Below are positions 12,501 to 47,674 of a stretch of 64,000 nt of DNA, one piece after another. The notes under the pieces are model-generated. The model ran no database searches. It had not been told where the DNA came from and saw nothing but the letters and a program-made list of their open reading frames with translations. The position numbers were made by a program, and so were the translations under genes. Origin of the DNA: Dipteris shenzhenensis (Eukaryota); NCBI GenBank assembly GCA_047967505.1, contig CM106538.1; one strand, 5' to 3'. Numbering within the stretch: position 1 is the first letter of the stretch; the number at the start of each line of letters is the position of its first letter.

Positions 12501-13379
12501 ACGGCCTCCTCCCTGCTCTCGCACCCCCTGATGTCTGCCTTCTTGGGTAGGGATTCTTCCAGGTGGTTTTTAGGAGTCCGGAGGTGGCGAGCTCTGTGCT
12601 CCAAGCTAGCCCCTTGCCTTTGGGGTCTAGGATGATTTTTTTGCTACCCTTCTCCTTGTTTTGACCTGGTGCTTGAGGACATCAGGGTAACATCTCTCTT
12701 CATCAGATTTCCTAGTCTTCCACAGGTGTACCTTCGGCTTCTGGCCCGATAGGTGCCTCTTTTGGGGTTGTCACAGAGATCCCACCCATCACCGGCTTAC
12801 CTTCTTTTGCTACAGAGGCAGTTACTTTGGATGGGGTTCCCAGGGTCAGGGTCCTTGTTTTTGACCCAGATATTTCAGATGATCATATCATGCTTCAGAG
12901 GCCTGATGGCTCCTTTTTTAGGTAGAGAATTGAGATCTCTAGGCGTCAGGACTAGTGCACGATTTGCAGATGCTTTGGACACTTTGCCAGAGATTGTCCA
13001 AAGAAGAAGAAGAGGCCCAAAGGCTCGGGCCAAGCACCTGCACCTGCTGCTAGGCTAGGTGCACCTCTTGCTGGCAGGGTTACACACAGATGGGTTCCCA
13101 TCAGGGTGGTTCCTCCACTTCAGGCTCATCAGAAGGGGCCACTTCTTTCTACTTTCACTTGTCCTATAGGACTCGGAGACCTTGGAGCCATGGATGCCTT
13201 GGCTCAGGCCATTCACCCTGTGTCTACGTGGAGTGCTTGCAATTGTCCTCGAAAGTCACAGAAATCCACAAAAAACATTGTGAGCTTTCTTGAAGGTTCA
13301 TACTCATTGTTGTTGCCGAACACCCAAAACACGTGAAATTCTGTCACTTTCGATGGCAAAACATGTGAAAGAAGATAAT

Positions 13380-13925
13380 AATTGATGCAAAGGTGCATGC
13401 AAATCTTGTCAACAAGTCTCACTGCAAGAGTCCATGCATAACTTGCCTGTGTCCTTGTGTCCATCCCCATTAAAGGTAGCTACTCGCTTGGTAAGAACTC
13501 ACTTTTCTACTCCACTTCCTGTTACCCTATGCGCCTCTTGTCGCTATCTCCATCCCCCTCTTTCCTACACCCTCCCCACCTGATTTCACCATGTCCACCT
13601 CTTGTCACCTTGTCCCCCCTATCCACCTCCTCTCCACATCCTTTAAGTCCCTCCACTCCCAATACTACGATCACTATGAAGGTCATGGTAGCCACATCCA
13701 CATCTGTGACTACCCTAGGGCTGTATTGATGCCGATGCACTTGAGGGAGACCTCAACCTATATCCCAACGAGGTGGCAAAGTCAGAGAGGCAGATCCTGG
13801 AGGACTCTATCGAGGATATGCACATATGGATCGAGGCTTGTGGGCTGAAGCCCCTACGCATGCCACCTTCCCTCCAACAATAGGAGGAGAAGGTGAAGAA
13901 AAGGGCGGATAAGAAGGTAGCAAAG
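13380..13925 (+). repeat. left part of an unclassified small-ORF repeat, interrupted by the hAT insertion (continues 25897-26065)
   Basis: Shares GTGTCCATCCCCATTAAAGGT and the peptides SLHSQYYDH..MPMH..RQILE..CGLKP with 27570-28375; similarity resumes right after the hAT. Confidence 0.8.
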
Positions 13926-14292
13926 CAAGGATATTTTTATCGAAGGTATAGAAATATAGTATTATAATATACTGGCAAAATTTTTCATAAATTACTTTTA
14001 AAAGTTTCAAAGAATTGGCGAATTATATCTTTTGTTATAATTTTTGTTTCAAAACTTGGCTAAATATTCTAGGGCATTTAAAAAACTTTCAATTTTCACA
14101 AATATACTAAAAACTAGTTATATTGAAAACTCTGTCTTTTCCGTTTTACATAATTTCAAAATACATGAAATAGCTAGCATTTAGGATATTGTAGAGTATG
14201 CAAAACATAAAATTGTTTAAGGATAATGAATATCCTTCAAATCCAATGGGGGAAGAAAATTCTCAAAGTCTAGTTTAAATAGTCCAAAAAAG

Positions 14293-16971
14293 CTAATTAT
14301 AGCCTTTTCTTTTATAGCTTGACTTCCAGAGTGCTAATGCTCTATCATACGGAAAGCTAGTAACATCATAAGAACAAGAGTATAATCTCAAGCTAAGATC
14401 TAAGTTATCATCTAGCTTATTACGAAGCTTATTCTTCAAGTAACCGAGAGTACTAAAACACCTTTCATCCTCAACTGAATCAAGAATAAAGGTTTGACAT
14501 AAATTTGCAAGCTTGAAGTACTCAGAAATGTTATCTTGTAGGAATGTACTGCGAGAGAGCTCGTTCCAAAGCCGAACCATCGAACCTTGCATTTGAACGT
14601 TTTCCATTAAATTACTTTGCTAGTGCATGACTTCTCCAAAAAGGGAAGACTGTGAATAAAGCTTTCCAAAATCCAACAAACCATTGTACTTTATATTGTC
14701 CATGTCAATGTCCCGTCCAAAGTGTTTTTTGAGAGCATCCAAATGATTCTTTAGACCTGCTTTGATACTTTCATAAGATCCATTGACACAAAAATGTGGA
14801 AATATGATGGTAAATGCTTCCATTAGGTCATTTTGTGGAAACCTACTTCTAATCTCATCTACCACTGCACTTGCAACTTCACTAAGGGCATTTTTCAATG
14901 TTTGTACTTTCTTTAAAAAAGCCTCTTTTTTAATGTATTGTAGTTTTTTGTGTCATTTGTTTTCTCTCGTCATCCTGAAAACCTGATTGTTTGCACGAAG
15001 GTAAACATATCCTTCCTGGTCACATGTTAAAAGTGAGGAGTCCCCATCTAGGTCTATTAAACTTTTCCAATCTTTAAACAATTTCTCGTCTTGAAAACTG
15101 GAGCTTGACTTCTTATCGTATGCTGTTGTTATACTCAAATTAGTGAGTTTTATTGCCTTGACATATTCATTGATATAAATATCCTTTGATTGTGACATTT
15201 TACTCAACATATTCATTTTGTCTAAAAGTGGAATAATTCCACACAATCCTAATATCGAATCTATGTTGGTCAGTTTATGATACTTTTCAACCTCTTCTTC
15301 TACCTCCATGTGCATTAAATAGACCAAAGTCTTGTATTCATCCCATAATCTTTTCACTAGCTGAACCAAAGATATCGATCTAGTATCCACATTCTTCAAA
15401 ATCTTCCTCCCTTTTGTACCCAGTGCTTCTACAATAACTCTAAATTGATTGTATCTTTTTGGACTCTTGCAAAAGTAAGAGTAGCTTTTTTTAACCAACG
15501 TCTCGATTCGTTGTACTGATGGAAATGTGGACACAACTTTGTAAGCTAGATTTGTGCGATGAGTCATACAATGTATCCCAACACAGTAAGGAGTATATTT
15601 TGTTTCTATTTGTACAGAGACACCATTCCGAAAACCTTGCAAGACTGAAGCACCATCACATGCAAAACAAACAAGTTTCTTGACCATCTCAGACTCTATC
15701 ACGCCTCCATACTCTTTTAAAGCTTGGATCAAAACTTGCACTAAGTTATTAGCATTGGATTCTGAATTAAGTTTGTGTACATGTAAAAAATATGGTTTTC
15801 TCTTATTGTTTTCTACCACGTACAAATGCATTCCTAACCACGATGTAGTATCCACAGCTGTGTACTCATCCAATGACACATAAAAAAATTCTGCAAGTTT
15901 TAAAGTCTCCTTTAAATCATCAATTATGACTTGGTTCATGTGGTTAGCCATATTTGTTGCACTACTCCTTGACCAATGCATGCTTGCCAAATTAGGAACA
16001 GATTCCAAAAATTGAAGATATGATTGGTAACCCAAGAAGTCTATCAGTGAGTGGCCTTGCTTCAATATTTGCATGATAGTTGAGAATTGCACTATCTTTT
16101 CTCTATCAACCTGATCATCGATACATTCCCAACGCTTTTTCAATGATCCTTCACTTTTATTTCTGCTAGACTCTTGTGCAAGCAAGAACTTACTGTACTC
16201 AATCTCATTTTTTAATTGGCGGTTATTTTCCTTGTCCCATTCTTTGATCACTTTCTTTTCATTACTTGTACCTTCTATAGTCTTGTAAACCTTCCCACAA
16301 TGCTTCTCAATCATATCAATCTTCAATTGTAACCATGCCTCCTTTTTCCTTGCCCATGTGCATATTTTACAAATGGCCCACTTTGGTGCATCCCCAGTGT
16401 CCACTTGTTCTACATCTAACTAAGGATATTTGGCTACCCAATCTTCTTGAAAATTCCTACGAATATCCCAAGCTCTCTTTCTCTTCTGCTTACTTGAAGA
16501 GTTGCAATTTTGTGATGCATTCTCAATGGCTTCTTCAGTTGGTGTTGACATTGATGATACTTTTTCTGACATTTTTCCACTTTCCAATCCAGTTAAATCC
16601 ACTACCTCATTATTTGTCAATGATGTGCCAGCTGATGAATTTTCAATTCCAATTGCATTCCCTTGATTACAATTTTGTGATCCTGTCTTCCCTGCTTCCA
16701 AGACTTGAAAACTCAAATCCCTGTTAAAACTATCATCGTTAAGCAATGATCTAGAACATTGATTTCTAGCATGATGCATTGTGCCCAAAGCATGTTCAGG
16801 AGTCCCATAAATTGCTTCATGATTCATGGATGATGAACTTGAGAGTAAATTCTCTGGTGTACTTGATGTTGTAAACATGTTTATATTAGTGCCCAATGAT
16901 GTAGAAGGTAATAAGAAAGATGTCATTTTTGTATTTTTCTCTAGAGCTTGAACTTTCTTCTTTCTTCCCAT
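14293..16971 (-). pseudogene. hAT transposase (DUF4371/ZNF862-like plus hATC dimerisation domain), one frame with 3 premature stops
   Basis: Four ORFs share a frame; motifs RRNFQEDWVAKYP, CKIC, SLDE, ACDGAS, HCMTHRTNL, SVEDERCFSTL..LKNKLRNKL; stops at 16420, 14953 and 14620. Confidence 0.92.
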
Positions 16972-17325
16972 GATAAGTACCTGTATAAAAAATTATGTTT
17001 TTATCAGCAATTGAGCATAAAATAGAACATAATTTCTTTTCTCTAAACACATGCTGAAAAAATAGCATAATAATTCTTATCCTTATAAAATTATGTGCAC
17101 TTCAAGTGCATTGCAAATCAAGTATAACACATCTTCCAAGAGAAGAAATACTTTAATTTATTTTCATACAAATCTACTATATGAATACAAAATGAATACA
17201 AGTCCACCACATGAATACAACAAGATATTGCTAGCTTCAAAGCAACATTCATCTCATCAATTGGCCGCATTGCTAGACTTGCATTACATCCAAAGCAACA
17301 TTCAAAGGTAGATTGAGTATATTTT

Positions 17326-18988
17326 CTATGTTGCTAGCTTCAAAGCAACATTCATCTCATCAAGGGGCCGCATTGCTAGACTTGAATTACATCCAAATGT
17401 TGATAGGATACTATAGGTATCCATAAGTGCTATTCTCTCTACAGAATTCTCAGTCATCATCTTTTCAAAGGCATGTTTTTTTATACACTTTAATAGTGCA
17501 CTATCAGGCATGTGGCGAGACTGTTCAAAATACCCAACTGCATCTTCCCAAAACTGTATAATCTCTGTAATTATCCATCCTAATGCATATATGTCTGACT
17601 TAGGGCTATACACACCTCTCCTAGAAAAACATTGAAGCTCAGGTGTAAACCACTTCTTTCGTGCATGCTCTTACTCTTTCTTATGCTTCCTTTGTGTAAA
17701 TTGTTGGTCAGTCTCTAGAGGTGTCTTCTTCATATCCTTAAAAGCTTTTCTAGTCTCTAAAGAAACTAGTGCCATCCTTTAATCAATTATGCCAACTCTA
17801 CATGCACCATTTGCTGTGAAATCTAACTGAATGTTACCAGGATGTAAGTCTGTATGAATCCATTGACCCTTATGTAACCTTGCTAATCCAGCAATGAGTG
17901 CATGTATAATGTGGTGCACATTTGAACTAAAGTAGTTAATTTGCTCTATTTGCTCCCTTGTGCATACATCTTCCAATGTTCCTTATGCCCTTGCCTTTGT
18001 TTCTTTGCGTCTTTTTAGGATTATGTCAACATAGCACCTAAACCTGCCTTGCTCATATGGTAAAGTTCTCATGAAGTGCATCAAGCTACCACCGTTAAAA
18101 TATGGTGTGATAGTCCACAAGGGCTCTTCTGGAGTTGCTGCAACAACACGAACAAGCACAGGATGCCGAATTTGCATTTGTCCCTCCTTCCTTGCCTCTC
18201 GTGTAGGATCCCCTATGTCACCTTATATTGCTTTCCAGCATATAGCATATATGCTATAATAATCCTGGAGCACCTGTGAGTTGTACTTTGTAGACAAATC
18301 CATATGTGCCAGAACCTATCTTTTCACCAATTTGGATCTCATTTTCAGTTATGTACATCATGAAGGACACATTGCTTATATGACTTGCCCTGATTTGTAG
18401 CTTTTGAGAATCACTACCTTGCACTTCTCGCATTTTTCCATTCAAAATCCTTGCACTTTCTTCTCCTTTTGCTACTTCCTCTGCCCTTCCGAAAGTAATT
18501 GCTGACTTTTTCTCCCAACTTACAGCTAGTATGGTTTTCACATCCGACCTTATAACCTTTGTCTTATTTTTAGCCCAGAAGGAATTCCATAAATGCATCT
18601 TTTCCTCATTAATATCATTTGCAAATGTTGGGTTCCTTGCGCATGCTTCATTAAACCGAGCCAAGACATTCCCAATGTTGCTCTCTACCCATAGCATAAC
18701 ATCAGTGTCCCATTTTATGATCCCTACAAGGTGTTTCCTGTTAGGATCCAGTTCTACTTGACGCCTTGTATTCAAAACAACTTTGCTCTTTAGAGTATGC
18801 AATCTAGAAGTGCTTTCTATGGTCATCTCCATCTCCTTTGTACTCATGTTATTTATCTCTACAAGAAGCTCATCTCGAAGGACTTGATTGACATACTTTC
18901 GTTGTCCTTTAGATAACTCAAAATCAATAGCCTTACGCTTAGATCCTTCCATCCCTAAACCATATGTAGGATCAAAACAAAAGAGCAT
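17326..18988 (-). pseudogene. intronless protein kinase with ~190-aa N-terminal extension (disrupted)
   Basis: IGSGTYGFVYK, YAGK (shifted frame), IRHPVLVRV, PYFNGGSL, HTDLHPGNI, GIID*, WFTPEL, SDIYALG in order; frameshift near 18230-18260 and in-frame stops. Confidence 0.85.
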
Positions 18989-19059
18989 TCAAAAATAGTT
19001 CTAAATCTAAGAAATGGAACAGCTTTATCATAGCCCAACATACATGACATTGGTAACTT

Positions 19060-20486
19060 ATTAAAAAAAGAAGGATCACATCACATCATGCATACCAAAC
19101 AATAATGCATATGCATATTCACAACATAAACTTTAAAAAATAAATAAGCATATATTTTTGCAGGTTGTCAGCTAGAACTAAGGAACTTGGTCCTGGGTCG
19201 TGGTGCCTCTTAGCCCCCTACCTTGTGAGCGCAGGAACCAGACACCACTTCCTGAACCAAGCCCTTCTTTCATGTTTGAAATCATAATACTACACTACAT
19301 AAAGCATGCCAAACCAATTTCAACTTACTCTATACAATGCACCAATAAATACATTAAAAAAGAAAGAGCACATCACAGATAATGATGCATATGCATATTC
19401 ACAATAGAAACTTTTAAAAAATAAATAAGCATACATTCCTTCATCTTGTCAACTAGATCTAAGAAACTTGGTCCTAGGTCGTGGTACCTCTTAGCCCCCT
19501 ACCTTGTGAGCGCAAGGAACCAGACACCACTTCCTGAACCAAGCCCTTCTTTCATGTTTGAAATCATAATACTACACTACATAAAGCATGCCAAACCAAT
19601 TTCAACTTACTCTATACAATCCACCAATAAATACATTAAAAAAGAAAGAGCACATCATAGACAATGATGCATATGCATATTCACAATAGAAACTTTTAAA
19701 AAATAAATAAGCATACATTTCTTTAGCTTGTCAACTAGATCTAAGAAACTTGGTCCTAGGTCATGGTGCCTCTTAGCCCCCTACCTTGTGAGCACAGGAA
19801 CCAAACACCACTTCCTAGACCAAGTCCTTCTTTCATGTTTGAAATCTAATACTACACTACATAAAGCATGCCAAACCAATTTCAACTTACTCTATACAAT
19901 GCACCAATAAATACATTAAAGAAGAAAGAGCACATCACAGACAATGATGCATATGCATATTCATAACATAAACTTAAAAAAAATAAATAAGCATATATTT
20001 CTGCAGGTTGTTAGCTAGAACTAAGGAACTTGGTCCTAGGTCGTGGTGCCTCTTAGCCCCCTGCCTTGTGAGTGCAGGAACCAGACACCACTTCCTGAAC
20101 CAAGCCCTTCTTTCATATTTGAAATCATAATACTACACTACATAAAGCATGCCAAACCAATTTCAACTTACTCTATACAATGCACCAATAAATACATTAA
20201 AAAAGAAAGAGCACATCACAGACAATGATGCATGTGCATATTCACAACAGAAACTTTTAAAAAATAAATAAGCATACATTTCTTTAGCTTGTCAACTAGA
20301 TCTAAGAAACTTGGTCCTAGGTCGTGGTACCTCTTAGCCCCCTGCCTTGTGAGCGCAGGAACTAGACACCACTTCCTGAACCAACCCCTTCTTTCATGTT
20401 TGAAATCATAATACTATACTATATAAAGCATGCCAAACCAATTTCAACTTACTCTATACAATGCACCAATAAATACATTAAAAAAG
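19060..20486. repeat. tandem array of ~5 x 281-bp units
   Basis: AACTTGGTCCT.GGTC.TGGT.CCTCTTAGCCCC recurs at ~19183, 19465, 19747, 20027 and 20308. Confidence 0.95.
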
Positions 20487-21099
20487 ACTTGCTACCCATG
20501 TGGTAGCAGATCTGCTGCCTACATGTCAGCCTTAATTCTTTCCCTACTGTAGTTAATCCTCTACAGCTACTAGCTATGGTGTATGAAAGACCAAATAGAG
20601 ATTACACATACCAGTTTTAGTAGCACCCAAGCTTTAAGGCATCTCCTTCTGGTACCATGGATGTTGGTGATGGACAATTTCAAAGGATTGCAATAGATGG
20701 GGCATTGCCCACTATATGCCAACCTCCAATCTTGTCTCTATCTTACGCCTCAAAAACGATGGCCTGAATTAGACCAATAGTAGATTCATTAGGTGAGCAC
20801 CATACAAATGCATGGCCTAAAAGACAGCTCAAATATTACATGACAAATCAAGTAATCGACGTATTGTTCTGAAAGGCCAAATACGACACTACGTCGATCC
20901 TGAATAGTCATGACTCACACTCACAGACACACACACACACATGTATAACTAACAAAAGAAATTAAAAGTAAATATATGAGTAAAGCTTCTTAACAATATA
21001 TGAGTTAAGCCTCATGACAATAAAGAAGTCACATAAAGTCCTTAAGCCACTAAAAGACAAGAATTAGTGCTTCCTATAGTATCTCTTCCTTGTACCTCC

Positions 21100-21850
21100 C
21101 AACCAATAATTACATGTCCAAAGAAAATACCTTCTTTAAATAAAAGAGATTAACTCTTGGCAATCTAATGTTCCCAAATGAATCCTTGTTTAGCTATTAA
21201 CAATTAATGGAATTCTTATAAAATATTAGAGAAAATCCCAAGGGAGTATAACGCACATCCAAGTAATACTTAAGACTCCAAAGGGAATACTGTCCTTTAA
21301 AGGGATATGATAGCATCCAATAATGCACTATGAGAAGCCCCGACAATGTAGTATACTTCCTAATGAGAGCATTGAGCTCATCTTTTCAAGTACGAAATAA
21401 AGTATGGCTCGAACACGAGAATGCGAATGAAAATTAAATGAAACTAAATGCCAGTGCATGAGCCATCCCCCTAGAATACTTAAGAAAAAAGGTCGAGAGG
21501 GTGGAGATCTAAGGTCATTTCGCACTCAAGTAGAGAGTTGATTCATGCAACCAAGACATCTACTATTAACGATGCACAACATTGTTCAAACAACACAACC
21601 AATCTATGGCATGAGAAATGTTAGAGGGGGGGAAAATGTCTGGCCCTGACGACGTAGATGCTTTGGGAGATATTCCTGCAAGGATTGCTATCAGAGCATT
21701 AAAATTAGACGAGCCTCGATTGAGCTGGTAGATAAGAAATGACGTCAGTTCCTTGCAGAAAATGCTCCGAGGCATCAAGATTCTTGCCATAAATAGATTC
21801 TTTGGACTGCGAGAACTCGGCTTCCTTCCACACAAACGTTCATAAACAGC
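21100..21850 (-). pseudogene. possible heavily decayed LINE 3' (zf-RVT region) fragment
   Basis: T*VRNDLRS resembles the plant L1 WxxRNxxxF motif; Trp-rich broken frames. Confidence 0.3.
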
Positions 21851-21915
21851 TCATTTCCTACTCATTTTCCCATAGTCCCTAGTCGCTGTGAAGATCTCCA
21901 CCTCCAGACCTCCAC

Positions 21916-22338
21916 ATGAAGGACCCTCAGCTCTTCTCCATCCTTTTCCTCTCCCTCTCTTCCCTCTTCCTCCCCCTCTCGGCCTCCTCCTCCAGCCAAC
22001 CCCGCTACCTCAGCCCCCCACTCAAGTTCCAATTCTATCGCACCACTTGCCCCCAGCTCGAAAAGATCATAAAAGAGAGAGTTGCTTACTGGAGCTCCCT
22101 CGACGACACCACTCCTGCTCCTGTCTTGCGTCTCTTCTTCCATGATTGTTTCGTTCAAGGCTGCGATGCTTCTGTGCTCATCAACTCCACGACTAAATCC
22201 ACAGTAGAGAGGGATGCTACCATCAACTTTAGCATCGGAGATTTCTTTGTTTTGGATGACATCAAACAGCGTTTAGAGGAGTGTCCCGACACTGTCTCTT
22301 GTGCTGACACTATTACTCTCGCTACATGGAAGGCATAG
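21916..22338 (+). pseudogene. class III secretory peroxidase 5' fragment
   Basis: Signal peptide, FYRTTCP, LRLFFHDCFVQGCDASVLI, CPDTVSCAD; truncated after ~140 aa. Confidence 0.93.
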
Positions 22339-22344
22339 TGGGTC

Positions 22345-22760
22345 AGCTTCAAAGTTTTCTCTCACTGCTTTCTTGCACAAAGATGGAGTCTCGTCTCCAA
22401 GAGTATAGAACCTAAAATCGAGAGACGTTTCTGGCAATGAAAAATCCAAAGAACCTGAGTTCTCCCTGGTACTAGGCACAACGCCGGATGAGGTATCAGC
22501 TATACGATGAGTGTTACCCTGTGTGACTTTATGTTGTCTTGAGTTTACTACACAATCATTAGGAATTGAAGTTCTCTTCTGTCCGGTGAGATGTTGAACA
22601 ACAGAACAAAAGTTCGACGCATCGGTAGTGACACAGTTTCCCTGCGCGACTACAATTGAGGAGAAGCCCAAGCCAGTCTCTTGCCTCTATACTAGACTGC
22701 TTCCAAAGAAGGTAACCAGAGAAGCGAAGAGCATTCTAGCGAGAGTGTAAGCCCACAAAA
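22345..22760 (-). pseudogene. VQ-motif protein gene fragment
   Basis: VTTDASNFCSVVQHLTG matches the FxxxVQxLTG VQ consensus; no intact start. Confidence 0.8.
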
Positions 22761-25700
22761 ATCAGCAAAAAGCCATGCAAATGCTAGAAGAATCAGCAAG
22801 ATGCACTCGCAACAAGCTTTCCATCTCTCTGATGTAAAAATGTTTACGATTGTTATTCAATGGAACGCCAATGAAGGACATATGTACTAATCTCCACAGA
22901 GAACACGATTTCCTAGCCTTAGGAGTCACGACTTCAGCACTGGGTGTTTGCAAAAACACGAAACTTCGAAGGCAAGTAGCACACCCAGCTCTTGATTTGG
23001 GCTTGAAAATGGGCAGAACATCAACGGAGGAGGAGGATGGATGGAGCGAAGAGTAGTCGCAAGACAAATGCTACTGCAAAGTGGTGGCAAGCAGGTAGGA
23101 GTTGTAGAAAATTGGAGGCAAAGGGGGAGTTGGTGAGCACTTACTAGCTTGAGAATGATTTTACGTCGCCGTTTGGGACTTGATTTGGCAGCAAGCTGGC
23201 AGCTTACACCCTGGTCCCCATCCTATGACTCATGAGTCATCAGTTATAAGTTAGAGCCTTATATTACAATTTACAAAATTTCAAAATTTTCATTAGGAAT
23301 TCAAATACCTTATGGTCTATTGAATATCACATTAAAGTAATGCTCATTTTTGTTATAGTAGGTCAAAAACTTATATACACTCAAAATTGCCAATTTATGA
23401 AACCTTCTCAAAAAAATTTTCAAGGTTATTTCTCAAAATTTTCCATTCATCTGACATTAAACCTCGATTTTTCATGAACACTAGTCCAAGCCATGAGGAC
23501 AATTGCTATATAGTTGTGGTCCTCCATATATTTTCCAAGCAATATAGGTGTGGTCATCCATCTCATTAATTATCGATGATGTGGTCCAAATAATCTTCAG
23601 GCATCAGCTTGTGTCGCCTACTCTCCACCTACTATCCCCATCTAAAGCATGCTTAATTATGGGTACAAATTAAATATCCTTTAAGTTTGCATTCCACAAT
23701 GTCTCCACAACTTTTTCTAACCAAGTCACAATATCAGGACTGCTGGTGGTATGTATTCCATTTCACAACATCCAAGGATGACATTCAAGTCCCTAATAAA
23801 TCTTGAATCAACTCTTTTCTATGATTCATTTGAAATAATCCTAGTGGCTTTTATTCTCTCATGGTATTATTGTTGTTACAAACTCTAAGGCTTGCTCTGC
23901 ACTACTGAGATCGTACAAAGAGATATATGTCATCTCAACGTCCTCGTTCTCTTCATCTTGTAGTGTGTCTTATCCAACGTTATCTGACTCTATACTTTGT
24001 CGTTGTTTTAGTGTGTGTAAGTCACTATCAACTCATACTTGATATAATGGCTACATTTACACTTAAGCTGATTATTCAACAATAGCTAATATCAATGCCT
24101 TCTAACGCGCTCTTTCAATTTCAGTTGCTAATCTAAAGCGAGGAGGGGACTTGGGAGGCCATCAGTTTAAACGATGAATCTACACAACATATGAAATGCG
24201 CATGAAACAGGCTCAAAGTGAAAGTACCTGGAGTGACAACTCACGAGTCCTGGGTGATGGCTCCTTCGAGCTTCGAAGTTCGTATGAGTTGACTAGTGAG
24301 GAGTTCACATCGCACGATTATCAATGCCCAATTGCCTCTCAAATATTGATTCTGGATTCTGCAAACATTGAGGCTTGAGCCTTGAAAGGTGCCGGTGGGA
24401 TTTGGGAACTTGGGCTTCCTTTAAAGATTGATGTGACAGGCTCACGAATCACTACTTAGTACTAAAGTCTAAGTGCTCACGACTCACTGCTCACAAGCAA
24501 AGATGAAGCCTGATAGCAATTTGCAATGGGATAGAGCATTAAGCAAAGATGTGACAGAATGAGAAGAGACTAGAGTTTGAGAAAGGGACGTTGGATTTTG
24601 GAAAAGGGACGTTGGAAAAGAAACTTGGGAACTTGGGCTGGGAGAGAGGAGATTACAACATGTTATGTATCCCCATAGACATTGGATTATATTTGGACAA
24701 TCTCTAGGGACATGTCTTACCTTCCTTAGCACTCCACGAGGACATCTAGAGGTGCAAGTAGCTAGGAGAGGTCTTGCTCATATGGGACTTCAATGCCAAG
24801 ACCAACAACATGTGTGTGTGTGTGTGTGTGTAAAAATAGAAAGAGAGTATGTCCCCCTATACATTGATACATTTAAGTATTTGCATGTGGCATTTTAGTT
24901 TAGTTCATTTCTTCTTATTTGTTGTCATAAATCTATAGAATCTTCCACTATACAAGATTGTGAGACTGGATAGATGGCTTAAGTGTACTAAATGTATGAG
25001 AATGCTAGAGGGGTAGATTTATATTTAAAGCCTCTATTGACTGGCCAGTTCTTTACATTGTGATAAATTTCTAAACACATAAATGCATAGTACATGATGA
25101 AATTAAAGTTAGATTTTCACACACACACACACACATACACACAACTAAATATAAATGCATAGAAGTACATGATGAAATTAAAGTTAGATTTTCACACACA
25201 CACACAACTAAATATGTGACTTATTGCATATTCACTACTCTAGCTCTATTCATTAATTTAGTTGAATTTTTACCTACTTTTTGCGATCATAAACTGTGAC
25301 TAAAGAAATACTTAAAATATCTAACAAGACACCTTCTACCATGCCATTATAGAAAATTTCATTCTTTAATTTTGTGTCATTTTAATCATTTGATTATTCT
25401 TGCTAGGAATCTATTGTTGTTTCTATTTACCTATGTATGTAGTGTCCTTCCATGTTCTTGTTGAAGATAGAAGCATGAAGAGATATATCCCTACTATATG
25501 ACTTGATGAGGGGTAGACATATTGCTAATGATGGGCCTACCATAGGCTTGAGTTAGCCAAATGTACGCTGGATATAAGGGCACAAGTCTTCTTGATTGCA
25601 CAAGTCTTCTTTTGGTGCTTAATTCTATAGATCTAGCCAAAATTTTAAATTGTATATATAATATGTTGGTGAAAGTTTCCAAATATATTTATTTATTATA

Positions 25701-25896
25701 TAAAACTTTGGCGAATTTTCATGGACTTTATTTATAATTTTATAATCTTGAAGGCTAAACCTAGCTCTTTTTTTAATTTTAGTTTCAAATTGTGGCGAAT
25801 ACACTAAGCTTTTATTTTTATAAAAGCATATAAACTTTCACAAGCCATATAAAACTTTCGCTTATTAACGAAACTAACGCGAAAAAATCATCCCTG

Positions 25897-26065
25897 TAGC
25901 AAAGGCCTTGACTTCACAGGTTAGCGGGCAACAATAAGCAACGATGGCTGCTGTAGTGTGTATGGGTTTTCTTGTTGGCTTGCAGAGGCTCTTCCTTAGA
26001 GGAATCCTCTTACTTGTAAGCATATCTTTTGTATTTCAATATACTACTACACTTTTGGCCAAGAA
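25897..26065 (+). repeat. right part of the interrupted small-ORF repeat
   Basis: TTGCAGAGG..CTTCCTTA.A.GAATCCTCTTACTTGTAA matches ~28295-28335. Confidence 0.8.
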
Positions 26066-27159
26066 ATTGCAAATGATTTGTATTGAAGTCGTTTCAATTT
26101 AATGTTCTAATAGCTTCTTCCTCCTTCCCTATTTTTGTTGTCACTTGAGCCTCTTCAGAGTTTTTCTTCATTTTGCAACATCTGCATCATAGTTGTATGC
26201 CTCCTTTCGTGATTTAGATTCACTCGCATGTAGGAATACTATTGCGCACTACAAAGAGTTGATGTTAGATACAGCATGCTAGAAAACTGTTTACTAGAAG
26301 TAATGAAATGTAGATATTGATGAGCAACAATACTAGGCAGCCTTGCTTCAATAATCAATAGACTGCTCGGACATGATACTAATCTTGAAACTATGCATTG
26401 ATTCATGTCTACAAATGATTAATAGATGGGATGCTATTTTTTTTCTTGCAATCTCATGCAAAATGATGCTCAGAATGTCTATTGATTGTTTACTTCTTCT
26501 CTGGCCCGATTTAGAAGTACGTTTAGTCGTGGCAACAGTGTATGTATTAATCAAGATGAAGCATTTTAGTTCTTGAAAGGTGACTCTCGTGACCTATTTT
26601 GAGCATTTTTTAATACTGTAAGTTGTATTTGGAGGTCTGCATTTGTAAGTCGTCCATGTCCTTGGCTTGAGGATTTCCAAACAAAGATTAAAAGGTGTTG
26701 TTTTTGCTCGAGGTGATCTTAATAAATCATATGGATCATACTTCCACTCGACAGATATACTTAGTTATGACAAACAATCAATAAGCCAATAACATACTTT
26801 TATTAAGCTAAATTTACAAGGTTTGTAGGTTGTGAGCAATCAAGGAGACTACGGACACCTGTTAATAAATCCCGGTATCTATATACCTTTTAGGGATTTT
26901 TAAAATTTAATCCCATTTAAACCTTAGCATTACCTTTCATTTTAAATCTTGGTTGAGATTCAAGCTTGCCTTTAATTTTAAAGGCTCAAAAAATTGTTTT
27001 TTTTCAAGCACTGGACAATGCATGGTCTGCGTTGATGTAGACTTGAACGGCTCACGTGGCTCACATTTCAAAAGCCCACATGGCTCACGATCACGTTTCA
27101 AAAGCCCACGATGAAAAAAATAGTTATAATCACGAATCTGCATGAGTCTCTCGTTGGAT

Positions 27160-29105
27160 ACTAGAATAAAATAGTATGTTTTCGTGATATGTTTTAAGGT
27201 TTAGCCATAAGCTAGCCTATGTTAATGCAGACATGAAGTGCTTTGTTAATGTAAATGTGCCTTGTTAACTATTTGGAGGTCTACATTAATGTAGACTGTT
27301 CTTTGTGCTACGGCATTGTTGACTTGTTATTGTGATCTATTATGACGAATTGATTAATCGTATTACTAGATTAAAATTGTATGTTTTTGCGATAGGTTTG
27401 GCCATATGTTGGTCTGCATTAACGCAGACATGAAGTGCTTTGTTAATGCAAATGTGCCCCTCATGTCCATATGGCCATGCAAAGCTCATGTCCACTCACC
27501 CTCTTGAGCTTTCTTGGAGCTACGTATGCATATCTATCGTGGCCACCCAACATGCACGAGAAAGCTGATATTAATTGCATGAGAGGTGCATGCAAAAATC
27601 ATCTAAACCTTCCTTCTCGTGTCCATCTGGCCATGCAAAACTCGCTTGCGCCATTGTGTCCATCCCCATTAAAGGTCAAAACATCTCACTTATCCACTCC
27701 ACTCACCTGTGCCCTCTCCACCTCCTATCGATAACCTTGTGCATTTCTTCTCGCCTCGTCCACCCCCTTTCCCTTGCGCCCTCCCCACCTTCTCTTAGGC
27801 TGTGCACCTCTTATCGCTTGTCGCTTTGTCCACCCCCTCTTGCCTTCAGCCTGTTCAGATCCTGTCGGCCTGTCCACCCCCTGCCCACCTCCCGCCATGT
27901 CTTCATGGCACTACACAACTACAATAGCTACACTAACAGTGAGCTCATGCAATACCTTGAGTCCCTACACTCCCAGTTCTATGACCACTGTCAAGCTCGT
28001 GGCTACCACATCCATGACATCTAGGACTACCTCGGGGTTGCTCTCATGCCCATGCACAAAGGGGACCTGGACGTGAATTGGTACGAGGAGGGGAAGTCCA
28101 AGAGGCAGATTCTAGAAGAGTCAATTTATGAAATGCACAAATAGATTGAAGGGTGTGGCTTGAAGCCATTGTGCATGTCACCTTCCCTCAAACAATAGGA
28201 GGAGAAGGCGAAAAAGAAGGCGGAGAAGGAGGAGGATAAGGCATCAACTTTGCATGCTGGTGATAATTAGGTAGCGATGATTTCAATAGTGTGTTTGCAG
28301 AGGTGCTTCCTTACAAGAATCCTCTTACTTGTAAAGACATCTTTGCTATAGCAATATATAAAAGTTTTTGACAAAACATTTCATTGTCTCATTCCAAACA
28401 TTTTGAGTGAGTTAATTTAGCGTCTTTGTAATACCATTTGTTACTGTGAAGTTGCAATAAGATCTTGAAAGCTGGATCCATTTGTTTTTTCATCATCTTT
28501 GACCGAACGAAATCTATCCACAGTAAGACTGTGTCTCTAAACACATAACATATAGTTTACGAATGACATGGACGAGACTCCGACTCACAGGCCTCAAATT
28601 TGCAACCCTACCTTACACTTTAGTGAGAAGGCCATTTTTTACTATGGCCTTTTTAAAATAGTACGTTTTTGCGATATGTTTTAAGGTGTAGCCGTAAGCT
28701 GGTCTACTTCTCACAGACATGAAGTGCTTTGTTAGCTATTTGGAGGTCTAACTAGACTGTTCTTTGTGCCATGACATTGTTGACTTCTTACTGTGATATA
28801 TTATGACGAATAGAATAATCGTATTACTAGAACAAAATAGTATGTTGTTGCGATATGTTGTAAGGTTTGCCCTTATGTTGGTTTGTGTTAATGCAGACAT
28901 GAAGTGCTTTGTTAACGCAAATGTGCTTTGTTAACTATTTGGAGGTCTGTGTTAACATAGACCATTCTTTGTTATTATGATATATTATGATGAATTGATT
29001 AATCGTATTACATGCAAAAAATAGTATGTTGTCGCGATATGTTGTATTTTTTGGCCGTAAGCTTATCTGCGTTAATATAGACATGAAGTGCTTTGTTAAC
29101 GCAAA
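27160..29105. repeat. ~190-bp tandem repeat family (AGACATGAAGTGCTTTGTTA core) split by an insertion
   Basis: Core at ~27229, 27426, 28716, 28896 and 29079. Confidence 0.85.
27570..28375 (+). repeat. uninterrupted copy of the small-ORF repeat (decayed ORF 27905-28270)
   Basis: MALHNYNSY..SLHSQFYDHCQARGYHIHDI*DYLGVALMPMH..KRQILEESIYEMHK*IEGCGLKP, homologous to 13640-13925. Confidence 0.75.
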
Positions 29106-31881: not shown

Positions 31882-31954
31882 TCAAGCGACATCAGAAGAG
31901 GCTACCAAACAGGTGCAACAACTCCAGGCCAAAAAACAAGAGTTGCAGCATCCT

Positions 31955-32670
31955 CTCTAACACATCTTCTCATAATGTCATCCTTGCTGCAATGGTACAG
32001 TTGTCCGGCAATCAATTGGTAAGGGGTTGCATCCTTGATCAGCTTCCTTACGCGTTCTTTGTTTAAGGGATGGTCTTGGGGAAAAACATTGGTCAAAAAA
32101 TGTCCTATCTTTTTTGCCCATTCAGGAATAAGGTCGACCAAGAATAATGAAGCATTAGGTAGGTCATCATCTACTCCTGTGGGTGGTTCTCCATTAGGGA
32201 TTCTAGACATATGGTCAGCTAAAACATGTTGTGACCATTTACAAACCACAACGGTGAAATCAAATTCAAGGAGGATTAACATCCATTGTGTGATTCTTCC
32301 TGTCATATAAAGCTTGTTGACCAAGTACAACATTGCTTGGTGATCTACACAAAACACAAATTTGTTGGCCAAGAGGTAATGCATGAATTTCTTCATTGCA
32401 TACACCATGCCTAACCCTTCGCATTTAGTCGTTGTATAGTTCATCTCAGTGGAGTTCAACTAGTGATTGGCAAAGTACACTAGATAATCTAAGTTGTATT
32501 CTCCTAGTTGTGCTAATACACACCCAATGGCCACGTTCAAAGCATCTACATGGACATGGAATATGAAATCCCAATGGAGGTCTCAATATGGGTGCACTTG
32601 CGAGTGCGTGCTTAAGAGTTTCAAAAGATATTTGGCACTCATCAATCCATACAAATATGGGTTTTAACAT
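31955..32670 (-). pseudogene. Ty3/Gypsy RT-RNase H fragment
   Basis: SFETLKHALASAPIL, NYTTTKCEGLGMVYAMKKF..VDHQA..LEFDF..LADHMSR. Confidence 0.9.
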
Positions 32671-33214: not shown

Positions 33215-33481
33215 TAAATAAAGTTCTTGGAGATAAATAAGACAACACTGAAAACGAAAGATAGCTGAAGAAGAAATATATATCACCAAAGGAACTCAAT
33301 ACAAGAGAAGAGATATGTGCGAAAGAAACTATGGAGGGGGCAAACAGCAGTCCTCCAGAGTAGTCAACTGAAGTGGGCTCTGCACTAGCTCCACAAGTTG
33401 GAACTAAACCAGATCTAGGTCAGCAACCTATTGCCAAAAGAGCAAAGGTTTGCTGCAGATCTGCAAAGAAGGGCAGCAACA
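33215..33481 (-). repeat. inverted copy of the distal half of the Copia LTR
   Basis: Reverse complement aligns with ~36735-37002. Confidence 0.9.
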
Positions 33482-36400
33482 ATTCCAGATCACTGCTGAT
33501 GATGATCTGAAGGTAAAGCTGGCAGACTACCAACGGTTAATTGCTGAGTTTGCCACAACTGGTCCTCCCAAATCCGAGGATGACCAAGTTACTTTCTTTT
33601 TGAACAAACTCCCACCTAAGTACTTCAGTTTTATGCAGCAAATCATTTCTCAACCCTCCCTTCCTACCTTTTATGAGTTCGAATGTCAACTCTTGCGTTA
33701 TGCTCGTCTCTACTCTCAGGTTCACCAAAAACATAGTGTTCCTGCTTCAGAGGGGGCTCTTCTCTCCGGGATTCAAAAAGATCAACTCAACTCTAAGAAG
33801 CCCTCTCCCACTCCTGACTCCAATAATTCCTCTGGTATTAAACCCGCCTGGCACAACCTTCTAAAAAAGAACCGGTTTTGTCAGCATTGCCAGAAAGTTG
33901 GGCATGTTGATGACGAATGTCGCTCCAAAGCCGAAGGCATTCTCCCACAACCCCCCAACACGACTCTTCTGCCACCTCGCTGGCGCCCTAGGAGTGGTCC
34001 TCCTCCACCTAACGCTAGCCCTTGGAGACCATAGGGCCATGTCACTAATCAGTTCACCCCATCCCCTCCCTTCATCACTCCCGAAGGCCTGTCTGACTGG
34101 TCCACTGGAGATTCTCTAGACTTCACTTCCCAGGCCTTGATCCATATCACCGAGCTTGACTCCTCCCCATCCATATCTGGATCAGCATTTCATACTCTAC
34201 CATGTGGCCATAAAGCCCCTTGGATTGTGGATAGTGGAGCCACTCATCATATGACCCCTCATCGTGATCTCTTCATTTCTTGCCAACCGGCAACAGGGGG
34301 AGTCCGCTGTGGCAATAACTCTGTCGCTCCTATTCGTGGCGTTGGTTCAATCAAATTTGATACCGACAAAGGCCCCAATCTTGCTCAGTTGGATCAAGTG
34401 TTTTATGTCCCCCAATTAGGGGTCAATCTTCTTTCCATCCATCAACTTTGCCTTCTTAGTCGTGCGGTGCTATTTACAAAGACGCATGTCGAAATCATAG
34501 ATGAGACATCAGGACTCCTTTTAGCTCAGGGCGAAGCCCAACCTCATGGTCTGTACCTCATGACACAATTTCTTGAGACTCCCTCCAATACCGGCTCTGA
34601 GTTTCATCGGCTTCATGGTCTTGCTACCCTGAAAGATCCGACTGACACAGAACAATTGTGGCATTATCGACTGGGACATTTGTCCTATGACTCTTTATAT
34701 GAAATGTCTCGGGATCATTTGGTTGATGGCCTACCTCAATTATCACGAGCCAAAGATATTTGCTGTCCATGCCAATTAGGCAAACAAAGCAGATGGAACC
34801 CTAGACAAGTACAAAGCTCGCTTAGTAGTGCAAGGATTTCGCCAAAAACATGGTATCGATTATGAGGAAACCTTTGCACCTACTACTCGGTTGACATCCT
34901 TTCACCTCCTCCTCGCTCTAGCTGCTCATCACAGCTGGTCTATCTATCAGATGGATGTCAAGAGTGCCTTTCTCAATGGCTACCTCGATGAGGAAGTCTA
35001 TGTGGCTCCCCCACCAGGTTTTTCTCCTCCTAGCCATGAAAATAAGGTATTCCGTCTCCGCAAAGCTCTTTATGGGCTTAAACAAGCACCTCGGTCCTGG
35101 TTCCACCGAATAGACACCTTCCTCAAAACTAATGGGTTTCATTCCACTCCTTTTGATCCGAATTTATATATACATCAATCTTTAGAGGGGGTCTGCTTTA
35201 TCTTACTTTACGTAGATGATCTTTTGCTTTTGGGCTCTACCACCACCACGCTTCAATCCATTAAAACACAACTCAGCACCACATTCGAGATGACCGTCGA
35301 TCTTGGTCTTCTCTCCTATTTCTTGGGCATGGAAGTTGAGCAGCATTCTGGTGGTATCTTTGTTTCTCAATAGAAATATGCTCTTCAACTCCTTGATCAG
35401 ATCATCCCCCACGAGCCTAAGCCAGCTGCCACTCCCTTGGATCCCACAGTCAAGCTCTCAAAGGACTTGAAGTCTCCTCCCTTTGATGAACATCTCTATC
35501 GTCAAGTTGTTGGCAAGCTACTCTGGCTCATTCACACTTGTCCAGATCTTTCTTACTCAGTTTCTATTCTTAGTCAGTACTTTAATGAACCCAAGCACAC
35601 TCATTGGCATGCATGTATTCGTATCTTACAGTTCATACGTGGTACTTACTCTTATGGTTTACATTTCAGACCTCGACTAACACTACAGGGATACACTGAT
35701 TCCGACTGGGTTAGAGACTCGGACAATCCCCGTTCTCATGGTGGCTACATTTTCTCGTTCGGCTCGGCACCTGTTTCTTGGTCCAGCCGTAAACAAGAAA
35801 CTGTTGCTGGATCTTCTACTGAGGCTGAATACCGGGCCTTGTATGATTGTACCACAGAGGCCATATATCTCCGGCAGTTTCTGGCAGAGCTACACTTTCC
35901 TTGTACTGAACCAACGGTCCTCTACGTCGACAATAAAAGTGTCATCGCTCTCGCCGGCAATCCCATTTTCTCCAACCGCACCAAACATGTTGGCGTACAC
36001 TTTCATTTTACTCGCGAGCAAGTGGAACTGGGTACTATTCGATTGATATATGTTCCAGCTGCCGATAATCATGTTGACATTCTTACCAAGCCGGTTAACT
36101 GACCTTTTCTTGAGCATCTTAGCCCACAGCTGGGGATTGGTGTACCGCCTCCTTCTCCTTGGCAGTATTTTTTTTGTATACTAGTGCTTAAAGGAAGTGA
36201 ACAAATCCCTTGTGAGGGCACTCCTTAAGCATCTCTCTTTCTGTACTCTATGATTGTACCATCACTACTGGGCATTTAGTGAAGATGAAAACCTACTTTG
36301 TAGGCATCTCCATCTAAATGAAAACCCTCTTACCCAAAAAAAAAAAAAAAAGGGCTGATGATGAAGATAGATCACCCCTGGAACCATTTTTTGATTACCC

Positions 36401-37004
36401 CTAGAACCATTCTACCTTGGACATTGAGAGGGGGTGTTAAGCCAGGCAATCTCCAAACGCAGAAGCCAGGGCCACACAAGTGGCCAGAAAGGCCAAAAAT
36501 GGCCAACCATTACTGGCCGACCAGCTGGCCGACCTCCTGGGTCAAGCCTATAAAATGCAGTAGCCCCCTGGCTACCACATCACTTTTGGAACAGGCTGCT
36601 GCACACCTGCGCTCCAGCATCTCTACCTCCTCTGCCTCTGCTCCTGCATCCTCTCCAACTTCTCTACCTCCTCTGCTTCCGCTCCATCATCCTCTCCTGC
36701 AGCTGCTCCAGATCAGCATCAACTTACTCCTCTATTGTTGTTGCCCTTCTTTGCAGATCTGCAACAAACCTTTGCTCTTCTGGCAATAGGTTGCTGACCC
36801 AGATCTCGTTCAGTTCCAACTTGTGGAGCTAGTGCAGAGCCCACTTCAGTTGACTGCTCTGGAGGACTGCTGTTCGCTCCCTCCACAGTTTCTTTCGCAG
36901 ATATCTCTTCTTTTGTATTGAGTTCCTTTGGTGATATATATTTCTTCTTCAGCTATCTTTCGTCTTCAGGGTTGTCTTATTTATCTCCAAGAACTTTCTT
37001 TATA
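33215..37004 (+). mobile_element. rearranged Ty1/Copia element (partial gag, protease, RT, RNase H; integrase core deleted; 3' LTR ~36435-37004)
   Basis: CQHCQKVGHVDDEC, WIVDSGATHHM, LWHYRLGH, QMDVKSAFLNG, LYVDDL, GYTDSDW, RTKHV; PPT GAGAGGGGG before TGTTAAG. Confidence 0.92.
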
Positions 37005-45331: not shown

Positions 45332-45877
45332 AGCAAAGAAAATCCGAGAACCGATTTACCGTTAGACCCAACACAATTGTTGTTGAAGAGCACATTAGCA
45401 TAGCAACACCAAAATGTTTAGAAATCAAAGCAAAAACTCATGCTTACAAATATAGCTTGTGTAATCATCCCAACTCTAGTGATTTGCTTTCTAAGAAGTA
45501 ATTACAAAGCTTCGAGGGCAAAGATTGGTAACAAAATATTAAAATATAAATATGTGGAGGCAAGGAAGAAACAAGAGGGCATGAGCATTGCCCTATGCCA
45601 AAATAAAGGGACATCAAGCTAGAAAGGAAGGGTCCATAGCTTCACTTAGCTGAGCTTTTCTTCCATTTTCAGCTTTCCTTCGCTTTTCAACATAAATCTT
45701 GAAGCCAAAACTAATGATTCCATTAAAACTCTCGACATAGAGTGGGCTAAACATAGAATTGTTTTTAAAAACGGCAAAATTGGGTAGGGCTAATAATACA
45801 GAACTTGATGGAGAGAGCTCACGTGTAAACAAGTAGTTTCTTTTCAAATTTCCGAGTGTGGGATGCGGTTGTAAAGA

Positions 45878-46745
45878 GACAGATCATCTTTGCTGGCCAA
45901 AAGCATTTCGACGATAGCCGCACCTTGGCCGACTACAACATCCACAAGAAGAGCACCCTGCACTTGGTGCTTCGCCTGGGAGGCGTCATGCCCATCACCT
46001 TTGGTAACGTCAAGACCAAGATTCCTCCTCTTGAGAGCCCCAATACCTGCAATGCCAAGGTCAAGATTCAAGCGAAGGAAGACGTCAACGGAGAAAGTGA
46101 AGGCAAGAGACGTGATGATCAGGTCATCGGTTATGGGAAGACCATCACCCTTGAAGACAACAAAGGTATCCCTCATTCAGATGTTCATTTTATTCATGGT
46201 TCGTGTCTAGGACAAACCGTTAAGACCGGCCTAGATACTGACAACGTGAAGGCCAAGATTGAAGAAAAGGAATGCAACAGTTCAGATGACCCAAAGGCCA
46301 TCACCATTGAAGGCATTGGTTATGGGAAGGCCATCAGCATCGAGGGCATCTTTTCTAATCTGGATTTGAAGACTAGCTTGGAGACCGGGAATGTGAAGGC
46401 CAACACTCATAACAAGACCAGGGAGACCCGCTCGGCTACAGACAATATGAGGGCCAAGATTCATGAAAAGGAAGGCATCCGCCCAGATGTCCAAGTCATT
46501 AATTTTGTTAATCTTCATGGCAAGTATCTAGGCCAGTCCCTAAGATTCTTCAAGTGGAAGAGACATGTATGGTCGAGAGAGCCTGTGTGGACGATTACTC
46601 GCTTAAAGGTGGTAGACAGTTTTGTAGACTTTACAAACTGTCTACCAGGTCAAAAGCCTTGATGCTACAAAGGAGCAGCCCAGAAATACCAGACCTTCAA
46701 AGCCCTTTTTCAACAATCCAACACTTGGAGTGGAAACCATTTTAA
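45878..46745 (+). pseudogene. degenerate tandem ubiquitin/ubiquitin-like repeats, 5'-truncated
   Basis: [30 protein letters not shown], then [34 protein letters not shown]. Confidence 0.85.
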
Positions 46746-47674
46746 ACACAGTGTTTAGGGCTAAAGGGAAGATGGTCACAGGTTCTAAAGCAAAAGTGTT
46801 CACATGTTGGGTTGCATGTCCCTCAGATTCCAATCATGAAGCCTTGGCCTTTACGGCAGGCCACTGTTTTACAAAGGAGATGTTATCCTTGAGGTACGCA
46901 GAGAACAACATGCTAGATTTTGAAAAACACAATTTCTCAGAATTGGTGGGATGTTTTGGAATTGATGTTGGCCGTGTAGAATTCAATACCTTTGGTTTCA
47001 CATGCTCATTGAAGCCATTGGTGATTGTAAGTGACAATGAAGATATTGCTCTCTTTCCAATGACAAGTGGAGAGATCCACCATTTACTATTGCCATGTAG
47101 TGTGGAATTGGAGTGTGGGAACAACAAGTTTATGGTAGTATTCTCTTATCCCTGCGCACAAACTTTTGTTATTCAGGCATATGAAGAATTAATTGAAGGA
47201 AGGGTTGATCATGGGATTGGAAACCTTTATTCATTCATGGGATTGAATAATGCTCAGCTATATCAGTTGCTAGTAGAAACTTTCCAGGAGTTTAACGATG
47301 GCTCTTTGGTTTGCTCACCGGGAGCCCTGGAGAAAGTTGAAGCCATATATTGCTGCTACAAATGTAGCACCGTTGGTGGTTCAAGTGGTGGACCTGCCAT
47401 GCCCACTCATCTACCTGGGTACACAGTGGGGATCCATGATGGAGCGGTCCAATATCAGGACTACAACATGGCCACATCGACGGACTCACCAGCATTCGTT
47501 ACAATATATGCACAGTTCGTGCTACCGAGGCTCCCTTGTAAAGATAGCAGCTTTTGGGTTGGTTGGAACCTTGCACCATTTGAGCGGTGGCTTAGCAAGC
47601 ACCATTTGGTATGGGGGGGATCAAACAAAAGAGGCAACAGGATAGGATGGACTTGGCTATCATTCCAGCAGTGA
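46730..47674 (+). CDS. trypsin-like (PA clan) serine protease domain, probably the C-terminal part of the ubiquitin-repeat ORF
   Basis: TAGHC (His), EDIAL (Asp), STVGGSSGGP (Ser) in order within a 314-aa uninterrupted frame. Confidence 0.75.
   Translation: METILNTVFRAKGKMVTGSKAKVFTCWVACPSDSNHEALAFTAGHCFTKEMLSLRYAENNMLDFEKHNFSELVGCFGIDVGRVEFNTFGFTCSLKPLVIVSDNEDIALFPMTSGEIHHLLLPCSVELECGNNKFMVVFSYPCAQTFVIQAYEELIEGRVDHGIGNLYSFMGLNNAQLYQLLVETFQEFNDGSLVCSPGALEKVEAIYCCYKCSTVGGSSGGPAMPTHLPGYTVGIHDGAVQYQDYNMATSTDSPAFVTIYAQFVLPRLPCKDSSFWVGWNLAPFERWLSKHHLVWGGSNKRGNRIGWTWLSFQQ

Follow-up and report, generated by a model that had tools for sequence, protein, structure and literature searches.

A segment of roughly 12 kb in Dipteris shenzhenensis (Eukaryota; assembly GCA_047967505.1, contig CM106538.1) is best explained as one insertion of a hAT-superfamily transposon, a decayed member of a multi-copy family with a kinase-like gene, in which a filler mostly private to this copy is found. 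We give this reading a probability of about 80%. The element occupies positions 13926-25896 of a stretch of 64,000 nucleotides, which was analysed as a whole and is called the window here. In the hAT mechanism, the transposase binds the element ends and subterminal motifs, excises the element and reinserts it with an 8-bp stagger. In keeping with that mechanism, the element would have entered an older repeat by cut-and-paste insertion with an 8-bp staggered target cut. Read in the orientation of its genes (minus strand), the body shared with other family members would run from the right end through ~2.2 kb of non-coding DNA, probably an array of 281-bp units, the kinase-like gene and the transposase gene to the left end. 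Between two family-level arms lies ~2.7 kb of genic filler, in which the promoter and 5′ third of a peroxidase gene are accompanied by an oppositely oriented VQ fragment.

Boundaries of the insertion and its empty site

The element measures 11,971 bp and is flanked by an exact 8-bp target site duplication (TSD), TAGCAAAG, read directly from the sequence at 13918-13925 on the left and 25897-25904 on the right. Its terminal inverted repeats (TIRs) are short and start with CA on both sides (CAAGGAT on the left, CAGGGAT on the right). The left TIR (CAAGGATATTTTTATCG, 13926-13942, plus strand) and the right TIR (CAGGGATGATTTTTTCG in reverse complement, 25880-25896, minus strand) agree in 15 of 18 alignment columns, the differences being one mismatch and two one-base gaps. 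Relative to the minus-strand genes of the element, the left end is the 3′ end. Both features are those listed for the superfamily in Table 1 of PMC4423477, where hAT elements have a TSD of 8 bp and the TIR consensus ‘CA’.

Internal to the TIRs, the motif TGGCGAAT lies at 14016 in the left subterminal region (13943-14292, plus strand) and at 25709 and 25793 in the right internal and subterminal region (23641-25879), the latter region being common to other copies at lower depth. These are the only three exact occurrences of the motif in the window, and all are 90-188 bp from a terminus. It is this placement beside the ends, not the count, that carries weight, as a count of three was reached by 15 of 100 shuffles and is not above chance. 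The left subterminal region is weakly similar to the right one in direct orientation. A composite subterminal motif, TTTCAAANNNNTGGCKAAT, gave one match only and was discarded as a motif.

Evidence for a single insertion event also comes from an uninterrupted relative of the target. When the flanks were joined with one copy of the TSD (13001-13925 to 25905-26900) and compared with the window, they matched 27957-28242 across the junction (73.8% over 290 columns, E 1e-24) and then 28295-28358 (82.8% over 64 columns). This paralogous target repeat (27957-28358, plus strand) lies 1.7 kb downstream, is collinear over the junction, and at 28233-28243 holds a single copy of the target, GGATAAG|GC, so that the 8-bp sequence duplicated around the element is single in the paralog. 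The TSD and the empty site together support the conclusion that 13926-25896 arrived in one piece, with defined boundaries, as an insertion of the hAT superfamily. An earlier, sequence-only reading of this DNA had described the exact TSD with imperfect inverted termini, the subterminal motif near both ends, and the restoration of a nearby repeat upon removal of the insert with one TSD copy; each of these observations was reproduced here.

Just left of the target repeat lies another high-copy repeat (12901-13222), with depths of 67-184 in two sequencing runs of the same organism (X2 and X3, introduced below), in whose contigs a 77-base stretch is swapped for 74 other letters. A six-frame Pfam scan of the left flank gave no match, and Rfam and tRNA scans of 13000-27000 found nothing.

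The transposase and the kinase-like gene

The left part of the element contains a transposase pseudogene of 892 codons without introns (14293-16971, minus strand), its codons spanning 16971-14296 in one frame that is interrupted by three stops: TAG at 16420-16422, TGA at 14953-14955 and TAG at 14620-14622. The frame aligns end to end with relatives of 817-819 amino acids at 31-34% identity, and the first stop sits where two of three relatives have the W of a Y/F-P-W motif.

The family assignment comes from a deep profile and a predicted fold. A profile search against 1.84 billion representative sequences recovered 12,937 proteins at E<=0.001, 305 of them at E<=1e-30. Among 43 long relatives, six matched Dimer_Tnp_hAT (PF05699) at E<=0.001 (two of ten examined pass the cut-off), two matched zf-C17orf113, one matched DUF4371, and none matched a kinase. 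A profile built from these 43 sequences, with the window protein as its first row, matches Hermes transposase, represented by four sequences (E 5e-9 to 3e-8), over three collinear blocks, one of them the C-terminal ER-FS block; the window transposase retains SVEDERCFS, a block alignable with Hermes. Moreover, in a Foldseek search with an AlphaFold model of the protein (mean predicted local distance difference test score 77.4, predicted template modelling score 0.68, residues 1-164 disordered), the ten best matches were all Hermes chains (E 6e-10 to 6e-8, template modelling score 0.57-0.68 when normalised to Hermes). By profile and predicted fold, the transposase is thus of the Hermes/hAT type, in support of the earlier proposal that a hAT transposase lies inside the element. 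The likeness to the housefly Hermes transposase (PDB 2bw3, 4d1q, 6dww, 8edg, 8sjd) extends to the profile and to the best fold matches; in contrast, identity is only 12-14%, and the window transposase is set apart by additional helical segments and by a disordered N-terminal stretch that, at 164 residues, is longer.

A tract resembling a splice acceptor, polypyrimidine with a terminal ACAG (16975-16995, minus strand), lies ~10 bases before the transposase ATG. It hints at an intron in the 5′ leader, perhaps in a transcript shared with the kinase-like gene.

The kinase-like frame lies upstream of the transposase on the same strand (17326-18952, minus strand, no introns) and was recognised by a Pfam match and by its motifs. 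Its N-terminal part comprises 232 codons and ends in a glycine loop, GSGTYGFVYK; after a frameshift near 18222-18256 follows a catalytic part with the sequences HTDLHPGN and SPKSDIYALGW. The catalytic part matches PK_Tyr_Ser-Thr (PF07714) at E 4.5e-10 (39.7 bits against a cut-off of 23.1, profile positions 56-204 of 258) and reaches 31.2 bits with PF00069, whose cut-off is 31.7. Both the glycine loop and an H-x-D-x4-N loop are present, a stop stands in the place of the DFG motif, and the frame is shifted. Four internal stops were found, a TAG at 18254 that ends the N-terminal part and TAA at 17983, 17779 and 17671. The best PDB match of the kinase part is Lck (E 3e-7 over 39 residues), which is too weak for naming a subfamily.

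Word-based searches returned no protein at E<=0.001 for the 299-amino-acid catalytic part, and none at that threshold for the 244-amino-acid N-terminal frame among longer proteins, the latter being weak evidence; an Atlas search with the N-terminal frame gave only scores <0.9. Judged from its reading frames and matches, the kinase-like gene is broken in this copy and very divergent. A direct duplication of 70 bp (17225-17294 and 17328-17397, 94% identical) was also observed here, through which the last kinase codons are repeated once.

Given the three stops in the transposase together with the frameshift and four internal stops in the kinase-like frame, the window copy is, on the reading of its frames, no longer autonomous. 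It could move only with transposase supplied by an intact relative.

Other copies of the family and a private filler

We searched for further copies by mapping Logan contigs on 12900-26900 at 85% likeness; the contigs came from one RNA run (X12) and from three DNA runs at low coverage (X1, X2 and X3) that are labelled as the same organism. The DNA runs placed 149, 119 and 84 contigs, respectively, ranging from at least 99% to less than 90% alike. In each DNA run, the stretch from 13929 to ~19190 is covered by contigs with 3-10% divergence, and the region 23641-25896 is covered more thinly (depth 0-18). At the left end, contigs stop matching at 13929; one X2 contig of 4,043 letters (record 10) matches 13929-15469 and continues into ~2.5 kb of unlike flank. 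At the right end, an X2 contig departs exactly after 25896 into a different flank, and X2 record 14 covers 25426-25905.

The same contigs bear on the kinase-like gene. All four bins of 17103-18970 are covered in the three DNA runs (depth 8.6-74), at a depth at least as high as that of the transposase. Three contig joints indicate internal deletions, at 14245>16368, at 15006>17821 (X3) and at 17093>17959 (X1 and X2), and the last two tie kinase to transposase sequence. Because other copies cover the kinase region at transposase-like depth and three contigs join it to the transposase, the kinase-like gene looks like a component of the family and not a later, private insertion. Other copies also carry small indels at 18220 and 18240 with a net change of minus 1, which is the shift needed to join the two kinase frames. 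Transposase, kinase and both ends are thus found at the level of the family, which is multi-copy and moderately diverged.

The kinase-like gene may be an old passenger amplified by the family. Alternatively, it could be a maintained, working accessory gene of a two-gene hAT lineage, kept in intact members together with their deletion derivatives, and would then aid the element, e.g., with the transposase or a silencing factor of the host as its phosphorylation target. The depth of the kinase region in other copies, the indels at 18220 and 18240 and the failure of the searches to find a close cellular relative are compatible with such a role, which we nevertheless regard as unlikely.

At plus-strand positions 14622 and 14955, every contig of all three DNA runs has G where the window has A. 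Of the three stops in the transposase, two thus arose by C-to-T type changes private to the window copy, from CAG and CGA. Changes of this type would have put all three stops into the transposase, while the kinase frame was shifted and stopped. Differences between copies are transition-biased. Within the transposase frame, 8 synonymous and 16 non-synonymous changes make up 24 differences (among 40 listed of 433), with no sign of selection, and one other copy gains a stop in this frame.

The middle of the element behaves differently from its arms. Upstream of the kinase frame in gene orientation lies a tandem array of 4.9 units of 281 bp with 92% match (19099-20487), and contigs of other copies extend into its first unit, to 19134-19192; the array is probably part of the shared body. 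Beyond it, depth falls to 0-0.6 in all three DNA runs over 2.8 kb (20372-23173), like that of single-copy flanks and compared with 2-74 over the family parts. This segment is private to the window copy or to a few copies or a small subfamily, and most members are without it. The filler proper (20488-23173) has a G+C content of 0.40-0.42, compared with 0.34-0.37 in the parts belonging to the element.

Two pieces of host genes were recognised in the filler. A class III peroxidase fragment (21916-22338, plus strand; PF00141, E 1.7e-23, profile positions 2-85 of 237, and 2-85 to 2-87 in two scans) has a start codon, a signal-peptide-like N-terminus and only the first third of the domain, with a TATA-like box ~120 bp upstream. 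A VQ-motif gene fragment without a start codon (22273-22686, minus strand; PF05678, E 3.3e-6, 26.9 bits against a cut-off of 20.5) stands tail to tail with it. Six-frame Pfam scanning of 20480-25401 found only this peroxidase N-terminus and the VQ motif, with no further peroxidase match. From the extent of their matches, both are truncated host gene fragments.

The four kinds of content named in the sequence-only reading (transposase, kinase, tandem array and host-gene fragments) are accordingly all present. Its wider claim, of a multi-gene hAT that moved as one unit, held for the single bounded insertion and for the kinase as part of the family; the peroxidase/VQ middle, absent from most family members, may have travelled with the element or have been added in place.

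How the filler arrived is the point on which the leading alternative turns. A family element of ~9 kb (transposase, kinase, array and right arm) may have inserted first, and the peroxidase/VQ filler of 2.7 kb been added in place afterwards, either as filler DNA, when a break left by excision was repaired with the sister chromatid as template, or as a nested element that has neither TIRs nor long terminal repeats (LTRs), e.g., a Helitron; the filler would then never have moved in a hAT. We hold this to be a serious contender at somewhat less than even odds. It is favoured by the zero depth of the filler between arms common to other copies, by the difference in G+C and by the Ds elements described in PMC3260210, whose internal filler is put down there to faulty break repair. 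We found no direct evidence against it. No TSD, TIR or LTR pair was found bounding the filler, and the tail-to-tail placement of two unrelated fragments suits copying by template switching but does not indicate where the copying took place. Under the reading of one insertion with a mostly private filler, the filler would likewise have been copied in by template switching during gap repair, or have come in through fusion of two neighbouring insertions. The lack of inner ends and of a TIR or LTR pair makes fusion, and likewise a nested TIR or LTR element, somewhat less likely; it does not tell whether the filler was captured before the last move or after it.

Fusion has been formulated as the macrotransposon model, set out for Pack-TYPE elements, including hAT, in section 9 of PMC8903248. 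Here it would mean that two neighbouring insertions in the same orientation lost or mutated their inner ends, and that the outer ends then moved with the host DNA between them. Shared arms outside and unique genic DNA inside are what this model predicts. Against it, no remnant of an inner end was seen: CAAGGAT occurs internally at 21182 (minus strand), 21679 and 23773 without the rest of the terminal repeat, and self-comparison of 19000-25896 gave no inverted partner, although decay beyond recognition is possible. Furthermore, the peroxidase is cut after a third of its domain and abuts the VQ fragment, unlike an intact piece of chromosome. We consider such an origin improbable.

Several observations weigh against one hAT insertion from a kinase-carrying family. 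The TSD and TIRs by themselves are only weakly above chance: the score of the pair at 13918/25897 was reached by 3 of 30,944 8-mer pairs lying 200-20,000 bp apart in the real window, compared with a mean of 0.57 pairs (range 0-3) in 30 composition-preserving shuffles, and of the other two pairs one is an inverted copia-like duplication and the other lies at 1287/17257. What carries the case is therefore the empty site in the paralog, together with the hAT transposase inside the element and the other copies that end at the same bases. The window transposase has no Pfam match even at E<=10, and a profile of four sequences found no PDB match, so that membership of the hAT superfamily needs the deeper profile or the fold. 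The joints between kinase and transposase have shorter sides of only 57 and 30 letters, at the 85% threshold and with a repeat warning. No contig holds both ends, and a second complete copy, or co-occurrence of the two ends, is thus without support; Logan contig depth, moreover, is not copy number. BLASTN and TBLASTN found no second copy of any module within the 64-kb window. Finally, the copies appear neutral in their decay, and no intact, active relative was seen among the contigs.

That the 8-bp repeat and inverted ends are coincidental, in a region that is a mosaic of unrelated repeats, would accord with the shuffle scores and with the copia-like pair but is extremely improbable, as the paralog reads across the junction at the exact base, 13929 and 25896 are also where other copies end, the interior holds a Hermes-type transposase, and all three TGGCGAAT of the window stand beside the ends.

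Some further repeats lie within the element or around it. A core of ~65 bp at 23418-23482 reaches a summed depth of 100-220 in all three DNA runs with many different flanks, and the 11 reads of the RNA run (~19% of it read) that fall on 12900-26900 are all on this core, which looks like a separate, very abundant short repeat. CA/TG microsatellites occur at 20917-20944, 24808-24837 and 25113-25143; two of them form an inverted pair of 27-30 nt, ~300 bp apart, near the right arm. The surrounding window is rich in retroelements, with a partial ubiquitin match at 45829-47674 (plus strand), a copia-type reverse transcriptase at 56794-57666 (plus strand) and a gypsy-type RNase H at 31902-32459 (minus strand). 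A long inverted duplication around the palindromic CAGATCTG (33420-33480 and 36735-36795), a false TSD and TIR candidate, encloses copia-type gag, pre-integrase and reverse transcriptase frames (33408-36102).

Relation to known transposons

Elements of the hAT superfamily usually encode a single transposase (PMC4423477); they are usually described as single-gene elements of a few kb, and gene capture is called rare in the passages of PMC4423477 and PMC3260210 that treat it. Gene fragments in hATs are rare but real, as described in parts of PMC8903248 and PMC3260210. Cargo-bearing hATs have already been described; what is found here is a kinase-carrying family and host gene fragments within 12 kb.

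The Ac/Ds elements of maize, including Ds2 and Ds-like elements, share with this element an 8-bp TSD, as given in the Ds account of PMC3260210. Their 11-bp TIR, (C/T)AGGGATGAAA in the same account, is matched by the right end in 9 of 11 bases and by the left end in fewer. Further likenesses to what that account describes are deletion derivatives (joints 14245>16368 and 15006>17821 here), filler with gene fragments, insertion in repetitive DNA, and decay. In contrast, one AAACGG lies within 300 bp of an end here, whereas most Ds2 and Ds-like elements covered there have at least three; the transposase is far from the Pfam hAT models; and the element measures 12 kb, compared with 4.6 kb for Ac, with a kinase-like second frame in its family. 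Membership of the Ac/Ds family is ruled out by the single AAACGG near the ends and the distant transposase.

Pack-hAT elements, as presented in sections of PMC8903248, are likewise TIR elements with an 8-bp TSD, host gene fragments inside, and ends or arms common to relatives, and the peroxidase and VQ fragments are host gene fragments of the kind that Pack-TYPE elements carry. Pack-TYPE elements are defined there as non-autonomous, whereas this element is far larger and retains, besides a second gene, a transposase frame that is broken but of full length. We therefore reject the term Pack-hAT in its strict sense, as an 892-codon transposase frame is present though broken by three stops.

Closer in size is ToxhAT of wheat-pathogenic fungi, which in the description taken from PMC6737239 is likewise large (14.3 kb) and TIR-bounded, with a hAT-like transposase and eight other annotated genes as cargo. 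It differs in being fungal, in its 74-bp TIRs, in having a virulence gene in its cargo and in consisting of parts that are separate repeats; that description names no kinase, and there is no sequence relation. In Harbinger/PIF and CACTA elements, a second open reading frame also travels with the transposase in many copies, according to the superfamily survey in PMC4423477. Unlike the gene here, the second genes of Harbinger and CACTA given in that survey are not kinases.

Full-text literature searches turned up no hAT family with a kinase gene among the titles listed. Size and cargo of known elements may also be illuminated by S5 Fig of PMC8903248 (Pack-hAT structures) and the tables of PMC3260210. 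Where the hAT passages of PMC4423477 mention a kinase, it is an insertion target and not a gene of the element.

Two departures from the usual hAT plan thus come together: a 12-kb hAT with a kinase-like second gene in its family, and one copy of it with a peroxidase promoter, the first third of that gene and a VQ fragment. If the kinase frame is open in no family member, the element would simply join the decaying composite transposons of a plant genome rich in repeats. If it is open in some members, the idea of an accessory enzyme in a hAT transposon could be tested on them, and the family would also illustrate, in nature, the size that a hAT payload can reach. With an accessory kinase, if true, this family would be the first of the hAT type to have a second gene that is both conserved and enzymatic.

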